A DNA stretch of 25,694 nucleotides from an uncultured Candidatus Saccharibacteria bacterium (lineage in GTDB: Bacteria > Patescibacteriota > Minisyncoccia > Minisyncoccales > CAZBVF01), in NCBI GenBank assembly GCA_964534925.1, contig CAZHQQ010000002.1, forward strand, positions 1 to 25,694. Direction: 5' to 3'. This document shows positions 1 to 3,124 of this stretch, piece after piece. The notes below the pieces were generated by a model that was not told the origin of the DNA, made no database searches, and saw only the letters and a list, made by a program, of their open reading frames with translations. Within the stretch, counting starts at the first letter, position 1. Each line of letters begins with the position of its first letter. Position numbers and translations under genes: made by a program.

Positions 1-77
1 AATCTATGCAGGGTCAAACCCTGATTTGAATCTATGCAGGGTCAAACCCTGATTTAAATCTATGCAGGGTCAAACCC
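1..77. repeat. Tandem 28-bp repeat (REP-like family A), ~2.75 copies, probably continuing upstream of the window
   Basis: Unit AATCTATGCAGGGTCAAACCCTGATTT(G/A) starts at 1, 29 and 57. Each unit holds the palindrome CAGGGT-CAA-ACCCTG (third copy truncated). There are no variable spacers. Confidence 0.95.
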
Positions 78-91
78 CGCAATAAGTAATT

Positions 92-126
92 TATGATTGG
101 TTGACACCAGGTGTCAACCGATTTTA
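92..126. repeat. REP-like palindrome family B, copy 1
   Basis: TATGATTGGTTGACACC-A-GGTGTCAACCGATTTTA with a perfect 10+1+10 core at 99-119. The same 35-bp unit recurs at 1882 and 2828, and the core alone at 3103. Confidence 0.95.
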
Positions 127-154
127 AGTTTTGTTTGCAGAATAAATATTTTTT

Positions 155-220
155 TTATGTCTTACAACTCATTTCGTATGGCAATCTATGTTGTTCGTAT
201 AACTTATTTTATCGGATAAC
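155..220 (+). repeat. Left inverted repeat of Fic module (IR-L1)
   Basis: Matches the reverse complement of 1444-1510 at 56/67 aligned columns (one gap, hand alignment). Confidence 0.9.
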
Positions 221-225
221 ATAAC

Positions 226-254
226 TTGACAAGAATTGATATTCCGATTAATAT
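226..254 (+). promoter_or_regulatory. Sigma70-type promoter of fic
   Basis: TTGACA (226-231), 17 bp, TAATAT (249-254). Confidence 0.65.
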
Positions 255-296
255 ATAAAAACAGAACAGTTTTTGATAACCGTTCTGGTTGTTAAT

Positions 297-1433
297 ATGA
301 TGCGTTCAGGAAAACACATAAATCAATTAAAAGGAGAGTTGACATATAAGGCATTTATCCCAAATTATCTGCCCTTTAGTCTTAAAAAAAACCCGGAAAT
401 AGATATTTTGTTATCTGAGGCTAATTTAAACTTAGGTAGATTAGATGGTATTTCGGATATAGTTCCGGATATAGACTTTCTTACATTGATATTTGGGAGA
501 AAAGAAGCAACTTTTTCTAGTCAGGTGGAAGGAACTCAGGCAACATTTGCAGACGTCTTAAAGGCAGAGGCAAAAGTTGAAGACAAGGATATCCCTGCCG
601 ATGTAAGAGAAATTTTCAACCATATTAGTGTAATGAATTATGGAATAAAGGAGTTAAAAAAAATTCCCTTATCTCTAAGACTTATACAAGGAATACATAA
701 AAGACTACTCAAAGGTGTAAGGGGTCAAGAAAGACAACCTGGGCAATTTAGAAAAACTCAAAATTGGGTAGGTGGACCAACAATTCAAACAGCGGCTTAT
801 GTCCCTGCTCCACCTCAAGAGATCCTATCTTTATTGGGAAATTTAGAAAATTTCTTGCATGACAAAAAACCCATTCCTCCATTAATTAAAGCTGCTTTAA
901 TCCATGCTCAATTTGAAAACATCCATCCTTTTCTAGATGGTAATGGGAGAATTGGTCGTCTTCTTGTAGCTTTTTACCTTTGGCATCAGAAAGTATTAAA
1001 ACACCCTATACTTTATTTATCTGTGTATTTCAAAAAAAATCAAAAAGATTACTATTATTGGTTGAATAATTTCCATGAAAAAGATGATATTGAAGGATGG
1101 ATAAAATTTTTTTTAAGGGGGGTAATCACAACCGCTAAAGAAGAGTTTGAAACAGCTCAAAAAGTTTTAGATTTAAAAGAAAAAGATACTCAAAAAATTA
1201 CAGCCGAACTTACTCGTGTTAGTAAGAATGGCCTAGTTCTTCTTAAAAACCTCTATAAAAATCCTTTTGTTTCGTTGAAAAGTGTAGTTTTATTTACTGG
1301 ATTAAGTAAATCAAATGCTCACTATTTACTTAAAAGAGTAGAAAAAACTGGCATATTAAAAGCTTTGCCCTCTAAGCCATATAGAACAAAAACTTACATT
1401 TATAAAGAATACATGGATTTATTGAATGCCTAA
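297..1433 (+). CDS. fic: Fic family protein (class II / SoFic-like AMPylase with N-terminal Fic_N region and probable C-terminal HTH)
   Basis: Canonical HPFLDGNGRIGR motif and N-terminal autoinhibitory (S/T)xxxE(G/N) motif SSQVEG. ATG at 297 (or 300) is preferred over the TTG at 273. Confidence 0.93.
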   Translation: MMRSGKHINQLKGELTYKAFIPNYLPFSLKKNPEIDILLSEANLNLGRLDGISDIVPDIDFLTLIFGRKEATFSSQVEGTQATFADVLKAEAKVEDKDIPADVREIFNHISVMNYGIKELKKIPLSLRLIQGIHKRLLKGVRGQERQPGQFRKTQNWVGGPTIQTAAYVPAPPQEILSLLGNLENFLHDKKPIPPLIKAALIHAQFENIHPFLDGNGRIGRLLVAFYLWHQKVLKHPILYLSVYFKKNQKDYYYWLNNFHEKDDIEGWIKFFLRGVITTAKEEFETAQKVLDLKEKDTQKITAELTRVSKNGLVLLKNLYKNPFVSLKSVVLFTGLSKSNAHYLLKRVEKTGILKALPSKPYRTKTYIYKEYMDLLNA

Positions 1434-1443
1434 TAATTATCTT

Positions 1444-1510
1444 GCTATCCGATAAGATAAGTTATAAGAACAAACACAGATTGTCATACAAGATGCGTCA
1501 TAAGACATAA
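1444..1510 (-). repeat. Right inverted repeat of Fic module (IR-R1)
   Basis: Reverse complement TTATGTCTTATGACGCATCTTGTATGACAATCTGTGTTTGTTCTTATAACTTATCTTATCGGATAGC is ~84% identical to 155-220. It starts 10 bp after the fic stop. Confidence 0.9.
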
Positions 1511-1664
1511 AGAATTATCTTTTTAATAATTTTTAGGTTGAACAAGTTTTATAATTTTTATTTCTAATGTCATAAAAAATTCGTGACTAAAAAAATTAGT
1601 TTTTCGTCTATTTTTCTCCAATCAAAAATTCTAAGTACGTCCTACAAAAGGAGGAAGAATTGCT

Positions 1665-1817
1665 GTGGAATATAATAATTCAGATTTTTTAATTGAAAAC
1701 ATCTTTTGTAACGGAGGAGAAATAGGAAACCTACCGGAAGAATATGACATATCGGATGCATTGGGAGAAAATGGGACCATCGTCATAAACGGAATAATTA
1801 CACAATCACCAGAGTAA
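1665..1817 (+). CDS. Small acidic hypothetical protein, 50 aa (not in ORF track)
   Basis: AAGGAGG at 1648-1654, GTG at 1665, TAA at 1815-1817. Translation MEYNNSDFLIENIFCNGGEIGNLPEEYDISDALGENGTIVINGIITQSPE has 10 D/E and no K/R/H. Confidence 0.55.
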   Translation: MEYNNSDFLIENIFCNGGEIGNLPEEYDISDALGENGTIVINGIITQSPE

Positions 1818-1827
1818 AACAAAAAAA

Positions 1828-1877
1828 TTAAATCAGGGTCAAACCCTGATTTAAATCTATGCAGGGTCAAACCCTGT
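1828..1877. repeat. REP-like family A, two copies at 28-bp period
   Basis: TTAAATCAGGGT-CAA-ACCCTGATTTAA (perfect 12-bp arms, 1828-1854) followed by CAGGGTCAAACCCTG (1862-1876). 1834-1874 is identical to 37-77. Confidence 0.95.
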
Positions 1878-1881
1878 AACA

Positions 1882-1916
1882 TATGATCGGTTGACACCTG
1901 GTGTCAACCGATTTTA
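1882..1916. repeat. REP-like palindrome family B, copy 2
   Basis: ATCGGTTGACACC-T-GGTGTCAACCGAT, perfect 13+1+13 (1886-1912). Confidence 0.95.
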
Positions 1917-2040
1917 TAATTATCTAGCCTGCCCGGAGAACAAATTGAGAAGCAAAAATTTTTAATTTATTTCCCATATAATATTATTATATCAAAAAAA
2001 CCGTCTGATTGGCGATTTTAATTCATTCAGTTTGTATTAA

Positions 2041-2093
2041 ATGTCTCACAACACATCTTGTCTGTCGTTCAATCTATGACGTGAGTCGCGAAA
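2041..2093 (+). repeat. Left inverted repeat of nuclease/sRNA module (IR-L2)
   Basis: First 32 nt match the reverse complement of 2726-2775 at 30/32, then a 4-nt indel, then 12/13. Its outer part is homologous to IR-L1 and IR-R1. Confidence 0.92.
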
Positions 2094-2110
2094 TTATTCA
2101 TCTAAGCTAA

Positions 2111-2154
2111 TGTGGATAAACCCCCTTGACACGTTCTGGAGATAGGGTTAAATT
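2111..2154 (+). promoter_or_regulatory. DnaA-box consensus plus sigma70-type promoter
   Basis: TGTGGATAA (reverse complement of TTATCCACA) at 2111-2119; TTGACA (2126-2131), 17 bp, TAAATT (2149-2154). Confidence 0.6.
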
Positions 2155-2160
2155 AAAAGT

Positions 2161-2222
2161 GCACCTGTGAGAGCTATGGCTCTCCCGCGGTCAATACATA
2201 AACTGCAGACGGGTGTTTTTTT
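2161..2222 (+). ncRNA. Candidate ~60-nt three-way-junction small RNA ending in a U-tract, convergent on the downstream gene
   Basis: P1 GCACCUGU(2161-68)/ACGGGUGU(2209-16); P2 GAGAGC-UAUG-GCUCUC(2169-84); P3 GCGGU(2187-91)/ACUGC(2202-06). A T-run follows, and the element starts 6 nt after the -10 box. It is a GC-rich island in AT-rich DNA. Confidence 0.6.
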
Positions 2223-2699
2223 TTAATCTTCTTCTAAGTTTCCAGAGAAAAATATTTTTTTCCTAAGAGAATTTTTAGTTGTTTTCCAAGAAGGGTATAG
2301 ACTATAAAAAATTTTGTTTCCACCTTCTATTTCTTTGATAATTATTTTTAATCTCACCTCCTTTATAATTGCGATAAAAACGTAATAGCGAACTAACTTT
2401 GCTCTTTTTTCCCAACGAGAATTGATGTTTTGTCTCACTAGCATCTTTCGTTCATCGTATTCTTGTAGAGTATGTGACCTAGTGATAATATCGGGAACTA
2501 AAGATATAAGTCTCAACCTTGTATGTTGCTCTAGGCTAGATCTACCCCTATTCCACGTTTTAAATAATATATGATCAAAACCTTCATTATTAAAAAAAAC
2601 CTCGTCCTTTAAACACGGACACCAAACTTTTCCAATTTTTTCATATATTTCTTTAGCTTTTTTCTTTGTCTCTTCTAATTTCTTTTCATCAATTTGCAT
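2223..2699 (-). CDS. Hypothetical protein, probable RelE/BECR-fold (PBECR-like) nuclease/toxin
   Basis: 158-aa basic ORF with an extended -10 (TGCTAAATT, 2714-2706) 6 nt before the ATG. The pattern VWCPCL..VFFNNEGFDH...R...EQ..RL...YYVF.A...LKIII...G.KIFYSLYP resembles BECR-type RNases by eye. The CDS is likely real; the fold call is tentative. Confidence 0.6.
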   Translation of the reverse strand: MQIDEKKLEETKKKAKEIYEKIGKVWCPCLKDEVFFNNEGFDHILFKTWNRGRSSLEQHTRLRLISLVPDIITRSHTLQEYDERKMLVRQNINSRWEKRAKLVRYYVFIAIIKEVRLKIIIKEIEGGNKIFYSLYPSWKTTKNSLRKKIFFSGNLEED

Positions 2700-2725
2700 T
2701 ATTTTAATTTAGCATAAAAATTACC

Positions 2726-2775
2726 TTTCAGCGACTCATGTCATTGAACGACAGACAAGATGTGTTGCGAGACGT
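2726..2775 (-). repeat. Right inverted repeat of nuclease/sRNA module (IR-R2)
   Basis: Reverse complement ACGTCTCGCAACACATCTTGTCTGTCGTTCAATGACATGAGTCGCTGAAA versus 2041-2093, including a 25-nt perfect run. It overlaps the predicted -35 position of the ORF promoter. Confidence 0.92.
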
Positions 2776-2827
2776 AAAAGAAAAAGCCCCGATGGATTCC
2801 AACGAGGCATTAAGAACTCCTACTATA

Positions 2828-2862
2828 TATGATTGGTTGACACCTGGTGTCAACCAATTTTA
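2828..2862. repeat. REP-like palindrome family B, copy 3
   Basis: ATTGGTTGACACC-T-GGTGTCAACCAAT, perfect 13+1+13 (2832-2858). Confidence 0.95.
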
Positions 2863-2869
2863 TTTGGAC

Positions 2870-3015
2870 AAAAAAAAGAGCGGGCAGATAGTATACTTAT
2901 GTATGCTTTGACTTGCCCGCTTTTATCATGAGTAGATTAGACTTCTGTTGTTTGGTTAAAACATGAAAAATGAGAATATCCGTGGAGACGCTTGTTTGAC
3001 AGAAGTCTAATCTAC
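2870..3015 (-). other. Double-hairpin structured element (possible ncRNA with terminator)
   Basis: Perfect 17-bp inverted repeat GTAGATTAGACTTCTGT (2932-2948)/ACAGAAGTCTAATCTAC (2999-3015). A second stem AGCGGGCA (2879-86)/TGCCCGCT (2914-21) is followed on the minus strand by T8 (A-run 2870-2877). Confidence 0.5.
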
Positions 3016-3099
3016 GAAAGAACTATTATGTAATAACATTACATCTTTAACTTAGTACCTTTTAAAAGTTTGTCAAGGGCTGAGGAAAAACTAAAGGAG

Positions 3100-3124
3100 A
3101 TCGGTTGACACCTGGTGTCAACCG
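3100..3124. repeat. REP-like palindrome family B, core-only copy 4
   Basis: CGGTTGACACC-T-GGTGTCAACCG (3102-3124). Confidence 0.92.

Follow-up and report, generated by a model that had tools for sequence, protein, structure and literature searches.

Two gene units with related inverted repeats, and a conserved small RNA beside an LPD3 gene, in a variable island of a Patescibacteria chromosome

Gene units and their four repeat arms

The stretch of DNA analyzed here (the window, 25.7 kb) is part of the chromosome of an uncultured, ultra-small bacterium of the Patescibacteria (Parcubacteria/Nealsonbacteria-like), and its first 3.1 kb contain two small gene units, each enclosed by a pair of inverted repeats (IRs) whose four arms share one outer core. 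The first unit (module 1) carries the gene for a Fic protein, and the second (module 2) carries a solo gene of the LPD3 family that converges on a structured small RNA (sRNA). To judge from its sequence across many loci, the sRNA is real and strongly conserved, and it is the firmest new result of the analysis. An earlier note, made from the window's sequence alone, had described the same array and proposed that both units are modules swapped or inverted by a trans-acting enzyme at the repeats. The features of the two units are listed below; L-numbers (L004, L011, L112, etc.) are labels of the comparison loci and contigs fetched for the analysis.

151 to 221, plus strand: IR-L1, left arm of module 1, with the core at 157-180 (repeat finder, alignment)
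226 to 254, plus strand: Fic promoter, sigma70-like, TTGACA-17-TAATAT, starting 5 nt inside IR-L1 and kept in L111-L114
262 to 287, plus strand: CAGAAC...GTTCTG dyad or hairpin in the Fic leader, kept in Fic homologues at 65-88% identity
297 to 1433, plus strand: Fic gene, 378 aa, SoFic-type (translation, Pfam, PADLOC)
1443 to 1514, minus strand: IR-R1, right arm of module 1, with the core at 1485-1508, beginning 10 nt past the Fic stop codon
1994 to 2025, plus strand: small hairpin and T-tract element AAAAACCGTCTGATTGGCGATTTTAATTC (sequence comparison with L112)
2031 to 2093, plus strand: IR-L2, left arm of module 2, with the core at 2041-2064 (repeat finder, alignment)
2126 to 2154, plus strand: sRNA promoter, sigma70-like, TTGACA-17-TAAATT
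2156 to 2229, plus strand: structured sRNA of ~60 nt, with an outer stem, two hairpins, the conserved loop CAAUACAUAA and a U-tract (alignment, covariance model)
2223 to 2699, minus strand: solo LPD3-family gene, 158 aa (Pfam, homologues, model)
2706 to 2714, minus strand: extended -10 element TGCTAAATT, separated by 6 nt from the LPD3 ATG (by eye; shared by L021, L023 and L027)
2726 to 2785, minus strand: IR-R2, right arm of module 2, with the core at 2752-2775 and a terminal CG instead of CA (repeat finder, alignment)
2776 to 2808, minus strand: terminator-like hairpin and T-run facing module 2, the T-run overlapping IR-R2 at its outer edge (by eye)

The degenerate 24-nt core ATGTCTYRYRACNCATYTYGTMTG matches at 157-180 (plus strand), 1485-1508 (minus), 2041-2064 (plus) and, with 1 mismatch, 2752-2775 (minus). 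There is no fifth match in the 25.7 kb, and 100 shuffles gave no match (0 expected vs 4 observed). The arms of pair 1 (151-221 and 1443-1514) are identical at 60 of 72 columns (83%) and those of pair 2 (2043-2093 and 2726-2773) at 45 of 51 (88%), with local-alignment scores of 81 and 66, respectively, and a shuffle maximum of 30. Between the pairs, alignment is limited to the outer ~24 nt and a short CAATCTRTG, the inner parts being specific to each pair. The core forms the outermost edge of all four arms and always points inward, as expected for the terminal repeats of one element family. The array thus has the order and coordinates that the earlier note gave it, and the cross-pair alignment confirms the common outer core and module-specific inner parts described there. 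Both units are also self-contained, as had been claimed, each with a promoter inside its IRs. Pairing of the arms as RNA over long range was considered and rejected: IR-L1 lies upstream of the Fic promoter, and only 2 of 7 arm differences are wobble-compatible (plus strand, by eye).

Module 1 ends in TGTCT...AGACA with TA on either side, and module 2 in TGTCT...GAGACG, preceded by AA and followed by TA (or flanked by TAAA/TAAA in another register). The flanks are AT-rich, and short matches at the module ends are therefore expected by chance; the earlier note had likewise seen no consistent target-site duplication.

Exact-protein look-ups in the ENA and JGI metagenomes yielded about 20 loci from 14 distinct contigs of the source population. 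These contigs are near-identical to the window (99.2-99.5%) and come from different samples in two public collections; all 14 have the same arrangement, with the same four arms at the same spacing and both modules spanned.

The LPD3 gene, its convergent RNA and the Fic gene

The 158-aa protein of module 2 just passes the Pfam threshold for LPD3 (PF18798; 29.0 bits vs a cut-off of 27, E 1.3e-6). LPD3 is one of 40 domains (LPD1-LPD40) of the 'polyvalent proteins' of phages and plasmids, with functions left open in their description (PMC5512222). Over 100 homologues of the protein were found, every one in Patescibacteria, and a profile search returned 1240 representative clusters, of which 561 have E values no higher than 1e-10; the proteins listed are mostly about 160 aa long. 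An AlphaFold model made from 38 homologues (pLDDT 85) has no fold match in the PDB (best E 0.42, TM below 0.26), and its best viral matches in Foldseek are phage proteins annotated as LPD3 (probability 0.98-0.99, E about 0.01). The label 'nuclease-like', given to this gene in the earlier note, is unsupported, as neither Pfam nor PADLOC assigns the protein to a nuclease family. The extended -10 element lies only 6-7 nt before the ATG, which implies a leaderless LPD3 mRNA.

In the first four contexts fetched, the LPD3 gene stands between different housekeeping genes each time, and nearly the same ~60-nt sequence directly follows its stop codon on the opposite strand, with its own TTGACA promoter. 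In the window the 3' end of the convergent sRNA meets the LPD3 stop codon, and a TTGACA-type -35 occupies the position of the sRNA promoter in all four homologous modules inspected. More than 80 other loci carry the LPD3 gene and sRNA together as a unit, and the gene calls read for four of these neighbourhoods differ in every case. An alignment of 32 distinct sRNA copies supports a three-helix structure with pairing in 100% of 576 cells and compensatory changes in 10 of 18 base pairs, values reached by none of 500 shuffles. Many of the pairs are G·U, which indicates that the structure was selected on the sRNA strand and not on that of LPD3. A covariance model placed the sRNA at this position beside essentially every LPD3 homologue in 83 loci (81 hits), and it found no sRNA in two control loci without LPD3. 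The sRNA that the earlier note had read from a single sequence is therefore borne out by both the alignment and the covariance matches. A search of Rfam 15 with 2156-2229 gave no match even at E up to 5; an Rfam identity was accordingly rejected, and the sRNA becomes a candidate new RNA family. A phage origin was ruled against by the lack of any relative of the LPD3 and sRNA unit among the IMG/VR viral contigs.

The conserved adjacency makes the sRNA a possible RNA partner of LPD3. In its tight pairing of a protein gene with a convergent small RNA that reaches the 3' end of that gene, the unit resembles some type I toxin-antitoxin systems, and a structured sRNA with conserved loops, as expected of a protein-binding RNA, recalls those of type III. 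Type I toxins, however, are short hydrophobic peptides. In type III systems the antitoxin consists of tandem repeats that precede the toxin gene on its own strand and are co-transcribed with it, whereas the sRNA here is single-copy and convergent, with a promoter of its own. Neither definition fits the LPD3-sRNA pair. In one Patescibacteria genome (L027/L028, 1636-3973), the unit adjoins two serine recombinase genes and a helix-turn-helix (HTH) gene and possibly lies within an integrated element.

By its sequence, the cargo of module 1 is a SoFic-type Fic AMP-transferase gene. Pfam identifies Fic_N and Fic domains and a weak C-terminal winged HTH; the Fic motif HPFLDGNGRIGR is intact in the translation (it fits HPFx(D/E)GNGR), an N-terminal S-x-x-x-E-G inhibitory motif is present, and the SoFic model of PADLOC matches over its full length (residues 16-377, E 5.6e-112). 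SoFic is reported to be a toxic AMPylase that provides defence via abortive infection (PMC12249575), and with the full-length match the description of the gene as 'toxin-type' in the earlier note is fair. The model match, the motif and the C-terminal domain make an anti-phage role a prediction for the protein in this genome. In contrast to the E. coli system, which has a small downstream antitoxin gene (AS1), no such open reading frame (ORF) fits between the Fic gene and IR-R1. The CAGAAC...GTTCTG dyad, which sits between promoter and start codon and is also present in L115, L127 and L128, may be a leader hairpin or an operator, perhaps for the winged-HTH domain of the Fic protein itself.

Comparison with Fic relatives places the arms outside the conserved unit. 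In a relative at 88% identity (L112), homology to the window is limited to the DNA that begins with AATCTAT, ahead of the promoter, and ends at the stop codon. The inner part of IR-L1 (183-205) is homologous to DNA upstream of the Fic promoter in L112, and IR-R1 copies part of the left end of that unit. L112 has an inverted repeat of its own (~26-40 nt), composed of two facing hairpin and T-tract elements, and its Fic gene likewise directly follows a large ORF. A homologue at 72% identity has direct copies of a repetitive extragenic palindromic (REP) element in place of inverted repeats, and homologues at 65-68% have no flanking repeats of any kind. The element at 1994-2025 has a homologue in L112 that lies after the large ORF and makes up the left repeat arm of that locus. 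The element thus precedes Fic in L112 and module 2 in the window, which hints that the Fic unit once stood at the present place of the LPD3 unit or that the hairpin and T-tract element is a repeat family itself.

Hairpin repeats, a direct duplication and the variable island

The remaining features of positions 1-3124 are mostly short palindromic repeats and the product of one duplication; palindromes are given without a strand.

1 to 85, plus strand: REP-A x3, tandem 28-nt units with the hairpin CAGGGT-CAA-ACCCTG, following the stop codon of a giant ORF (the window starts inside this array)
95 to 123: REP-B1, perfect palindrome with a 13-bp stem and T-rich tail, terminator-like, with two back-to-back TTGACA boxes
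1649 to 1817, plus strand: X', relic of the last ~56 codons of the giant ORF (duplication alignment)
1828 to 1880, plus strand: REP-A x2, within the direct duplication
1885 to 1913: REP-B2, within the direct duplication and followed at 1915-1920 by TATAAT, a perfect sigma70 consensus
2831 to 2859: REP-B3 (palindrome search)
2864 to 3100, plus strand: highly structured slot without genes (repeat finder, folding against shuffles)
3102 to 3124: REP-B4 (palindrome search)

REP-A (CAGGGTCAAACCCTG) is present five times and REP-B (GGTTGACACCWGGTGTCAACC), a perfect palindrome of 21-27 nt, four times, all within the first 3.1 kb. The REP-B copies (99-119, 1891-1920, 2835-2855 and 3103-3123) contain back-to-back TTGACA boxes and also score as terminators with a 13-bp stem; REP-B2 and the TATAAT after it match the sigma70 consensus at 12 of 12 positions and aim at module 2. 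The slot between REP-B3 and REP-B4, which folds much better than shuffles (z -5.8), contains a strong hairpin with a T-tail (2876-2924) and a perfect 17-bp inverted repeat (2932-2948 and 2999-3015) around 50 nt, and may be another small RNA or an empty remnant. The REP-A hairpin and a GAGGTTAAACCTC variant of it are found at several intergenic sites in the relatives L121 and L115. Together with one exact REP-A in the relatives, these copies mark REP-A as a lineage-wide REP-type hairpin. REP-B and the core were seen at this locus only.

Several of the population contigs extend the window upstream, and there a giant ORF of more than 1422 aa, which has LTD, Ig-like and BACON domains, ends just before the three REP-A units. 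Positions 1649-1945 are a direct copy of the last ~170 nt of this gene (X) and the REP-A and REP-B that follow it (L011, 3486-3822), 92-97% identical depending on the allele. The direct duplication, of 270-320 bp, lies on both sides of the Fic unit, and it is this one event, and not cassette boundaries, that accounts for the periodicity of REP-A and REP-B. The REP copies from which the earlier note read a regular spacing of modules are present, but the spacing does not mark modules. Similarly, the 'acidic ORF' of the note (1665-1817) is no gene of its own and belongs to the relic X'. The window's X' has the X allele of the real 3' end of the giant gene in L004, with a 9-nt in-frame deletion, and all 14 other contigs share a different X' allele (16 single-nucleotide differences), which suggests that X and X' exchange sequence by gene conversion or that this stretch of the window is a mosaic assembly. 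Assemblies break at the REP-A/X repeat, within which the window and no fewer than three other contigs start or stop, and the first 8 nt of the window imply one more partial REP-A unit.

Several other accounts of the array were considered and set aside. The motif AATCTATG, which occurs six times in the first 3.2 kb and twice in the rest of the window, was considered as a shared junction or crossover motif; four of the six are REP-A copies and the other two lie in homologous arms, and hence it is not independent evidence. Tandem duplication of a whole unit of X, REP-A, REP-B and module, followed by replacement of the cargo, is unlikely, with X and X' at 92-97% identity but L1 and L2 cores at 19/24 with unrelated inner parts. 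Nor does X look like an orphan toxin-tip cassette of a polymorphic toxin, as it has only ~56 repeat-like residues and no toxin domain and belongs to an ORF with LTD, Ig-like and BACON domains.

Positions 1-3124 are the edge of a small accessory, defence-type island, with the 3' end of the giant surface-protein gene on one side and a conserved housekeeping block on the other. Beyond 3.1 kb, the 25.7-kb window is ordinary chromosome with a G+C of about 32%, including genes for ClpB, HtrA, glycosyltransferases, ComEC, NrdD and its activase, FtsZ/FtsA, YbeY, HisRS and a signal peptidase. No tRNA, Rfam match at gathering scores or recombinase was found in the window. In the relatives whose ClpB is closest (85% identity; L121), synteny is kept on both sides of the island, from NrdD to ClpB-Trypsin_2 and at the 3' end of a giant gene that encodes 2123 aa. 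The DNA between the Trypsin_2 gene and this 3' end holds a 179-aa ORF, a pilin-like gene, a tRNA-like stretch (by eye), a fragment of HSP20 and many REP hairpins, and none of Fic, LPD3, core or REP-B occurs at that position. The region is a variable island, filled with other genes in the nearest relative. The comparison of syntenic loci that the earlier note had called for thus returned different island content but no empty site or swapped cargo. Positions 14600-15460 of L121, a span of under 1 kb, contain the tRNA-like stretch, the HSP20 fragment (55 aa) and no fewer than seven REP-type hairpins GAGGTTAAACCTC. This hairpin is also present between ComEC and the next gene, and its recurrence in L121 points to a dispersed REP family in this lineage.

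Origin of the repeats and significance of the units

The arms are tentatively read as terminal inverted repeats belonging to two cargo elements, related and non-autonomous, fossil or rarely moving, that would resemble mobile insertion cassettes (MICs) or cargo-bearing miniature inverted-repeat transposable elements (MITEs). This account is ranked first, at somewhat below even confidence, because the shared part is outermost and inward-pointing at each of the four ends, with unrelated, self-contained cargo in between and a variable island as the setting; the TG...CA ends of module 1 with their TA flanks also speak for it. MIC231 of Bacillus cereus, with IS231, is an example of a mobile insertion cassette. 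Such cassettes hold passenger genes without a transposase between terminal inverted repeats (PMC5444012). Here too, one or two passenger genes lie between related ends around different cargo, with no transposase ORF inside either module, and to that extent the analogy drawn in the earlier note stands. It fails in that there is no known parent insertion sequence (IS) with matching ends, no further copy or polymorphism, no clear target duplication and no sign of movement, and in that the arms, at 50-72 nt, have pair-specific inner parts. The architecture is most like a MIC or a cargo-bearing MITE, but the units are not counted as members of either.

A substantial body of results weighs against terminal repeats of this kind. 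The core has no match in one genome per GTDB species or in IMG/VR, and in the JGI metagenome set it occurs at this locus only, apart from one unrelated, GC-rich chance match (L109). When the core was searched as a pattern with as many as 5 mismatches permitted, the relatives' loci gave nothing, and about 540 kb of Patescibacteria loci gave only chance matches, all with 5 mismatches. The profile scan for further inverted pairs that the earlier note had suggested, run with nhmmer on the four arms, recovered only these same arms in 666 kb of related loci. The 14 population contigs, at the level of assembled sequence, contain no empty site, inversion or cargo swap. No gene for a recombinase, transposase, integrase or invertase was found in the window, as the note had already stated, or in the contigs that extend it, where the upstream DNA holds the giant ORF instead. 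The target duplication is inconsistent between the modules (TA/TA vs AA/TA), the core within pair 1 (18/24) is no better conserved than the inner part, and arms of 50-72 nt are long for terminal repeats. Two other lineages frame the same two cargo types with their own, unrelated inverted repeats, a hint that such repeats can arise without this core. As far as the data reach, neither cargo variation nor other copies of the core were found, outcomes that the note itself had named as telling against its proposal; with no enzyme and no recognizable type of site, swapping or inversion of the modules at the repeats finds no support.

The core is also absent from the PLSDB plasmids, and the arms as plasmid-borne IS ends were rejected for lack of a blastn match to window 130-300 in the same database. 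In a flank-repeat test of 75 LPD3 loci, upstream flanks were compared with downstream flanks against a cross-locus null (99th percentile 29). Real flanking repeats were found only in the window (score 66) and in one other lineage (L023/L029, score 116), whose 63-nt arms are unrelated in sequence to those of the window and include the duplicated sRNA promoter region. About 70 of the 75 modules have no flanking repeats, and the same is true of more distant Fic genes. The repeats are thus not an intrinsic part of the LPD3 and sRNA module; an apparent pair in L083 is low-complexity AT sequence.

Two rival accounts, both rather unlikely, are ranked next. The arms could be cis-regulatory or insulating elements, with one DNA-binding protein acting at both ends of a unit; the winged HTH of the Fic protein would be a possible binder, the arms of module 2 would co-regulate the convergent LPD3 and sRNA promoters, and both units would be isolated from outside transcription. 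Promoters do lie right next to the inner arm edges (the Fic -35 begins 5 nt past the end of L1), and in the window and, independently, in L023/L029, the arm on the LPD3 side ends 27 nt before the ATG while the other starts just past the sRNA promoter. In L023 an arm duplicates DNA upstream of the sRNA promoter, both L112 arms around Fic hold a small hairpin and T-tract facing the unit, terminator-like elements face module 2 from both sides, and arms of unrelated sequence surround the same cargo in three lineages. Regulation of this kind is difficult to reconcile with the roughly 70 other LPD3 and sRNA modules, and the Fic homologues at 65-72%, that do without such repeats, and with a common part that is outermost and farthest from the promoters. 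No promoter was recognized by eye in the right arm of module 1, and the core lacks the significant dyad expected of a dimeric operator. Alternatively, the repeats could be functionless by-products, either inverted duplications that formed locally when DNA was acquired or repaired, or REP-like insertions into existing inverted terminators, later enlarged and homogenized by gene conversion. Palindromic repeats specific to the lineage abound in the island (REP-A, REP-B and the 17-bp perfect inverted repeat), and IR-R1 repeats, in inverted form, a sequence that in L112 is part of the Fic unit itself, such that at least part of this arm arose by copying. Relative to L112, the core looks inserted or replaced just outside the common AATCTAT; the arms have diverged to 83-88%, as unconstrained sequence would, and the core is found nowhere else. 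Two independent accidents would nevertheless be needed to place the same core in the same inward orientation at four ends, and REP-type elements are normally multi-copy, whereas this core has four copies only in the data searched.

It is quite improbable that the cores are sites of a tyrosine or serine recombinase, used for inversion or for cassette exchange between replicons by double crossover, as proposed for the dif modules of Acinetobacter. The units are bounded by inverted, related short sequences, a loose 10-6-10 geometry with 6-7 of 10 complementary arm positions can be drawn in the core, and ATTTCGTATgg in L1 is identical to the Acinetobacter XerC half-site at 9 of 11 positions (PMC13141974). 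The dyad, however, is no better than in 17-39% of shuffles, a XerD-like half in register is lacking, and in the remaining three arms only 6-8 of 11 positions agree with the XerC half; the likeness in L1 is treated as chance. Neighbouring units share no site and are about 530 nt apart, all contigs have one orientation, and no recombinase gene lies nearby. Each unit also carries its own promoter, and inversion would therefore leave expression unchanged. That the repeats are an assembly artefact is scarcely credible: the window starts inside the REP-A array, several contigs break there and the window's X' allele differs from that of the other contigs, but 14 distinct contigs from ENA and JGI span both modules with the same four arms, which disposes of a concern raised in the earlier note.

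Plasmid dif (pdif) sites of Acinetobacter, the analogy drawn by the earlier note alongside MICs, bound small accessory or toxin-antitoxin units with inverted short sites and string them together, much as is seen here. They are 28 bp long, with 11 bp for XerC, a 6-bp spacer and 11 bp for XerD, and their enzyme is encoded elsewhere (PMC13141974). Against the site table of that paper, the window has no Xer-type 11-6-11 site. Neighbouring pdif modules share sites in alternating orientation, whereas each unit here has its own pair, with IR-R1 reaching to 1514 and IR-L2 beginning at 2031; the setting here is chromosomal and no shuffling was seen, and the analogy does not hold. The array-like run of single-gene accessory units, including defence genes, with palindromic elements between them also recalls integrons. 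Integron cassettes are mostly promoterless and co-oriented, with one attC end recombined by IntI. The units here differ in having their own promoters, differing orientations and two inverted arms, and no integrase was seen. There is no attC-like architecture, REP-B being no attC, and, in agreement with the earlier note, the locus is not an integron array. Integron gene cassettes can, according to a preprint, carry phage-defence genes (bioRxiv 10.1101/2024.07.02.601719).

If the arms are terminal repeats of MIC-like elements, a transposase encoded elsewhere in the genome would have placed both cargo elements in the island, where they would now be fixed. Module 2 would probably be decaying, since CG has replaced its terminal CA and AA stands where a flanking TA would be expected. 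Gene conversion between the arms would have enlarged the inner parts that are specific to each pair. The duplication would be a separate event, in which homology-facilitated illegitimate recombination brought in DNA of a related strain, anchored in the giant gene and joined illegitimately at the far end. The incoming DNA would have carried the giant-gene end, hairpins and Fic unit and left the old 3' end of the recipient stranded as X'. Such a scenario fits with the large ORF that also precedes Fic in the 88% relative and with the ComEC competence gene in the window.

A broader possibility, distinctly unlikely at present, is that the locus represents an undescribed cassette system of the Patescibacteria, in which single SoFic or LPD3 and sRNA units between long IRs with a common core would be moved or exchanged by an enzyme encoded elsewhere, and, separately, that LPD3 with its sRNA is a new protein-RNA conflict module, such as a toxin-antitoxin or defence system. 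Should the repeats be the ends of mobile cassettes, they would offer a rare view of defence-gene exchange in the genome-reduced, mostly IS-poor Patescibacteria. Such an interpretation, a minority possibility on present evidence, would also mean that a transposase or recombinase awaits discovery. The main solid gain is the pairing of LPD3 with a three-helix RNA, next to nearly every solo LPD3 gene examined. The sRNA is a candidate new Rfam family from a lineage with few known non-coding RNAs, and its pairing with LPD3 provides the first concrete functional lead for this domain, a possible RNA partner.

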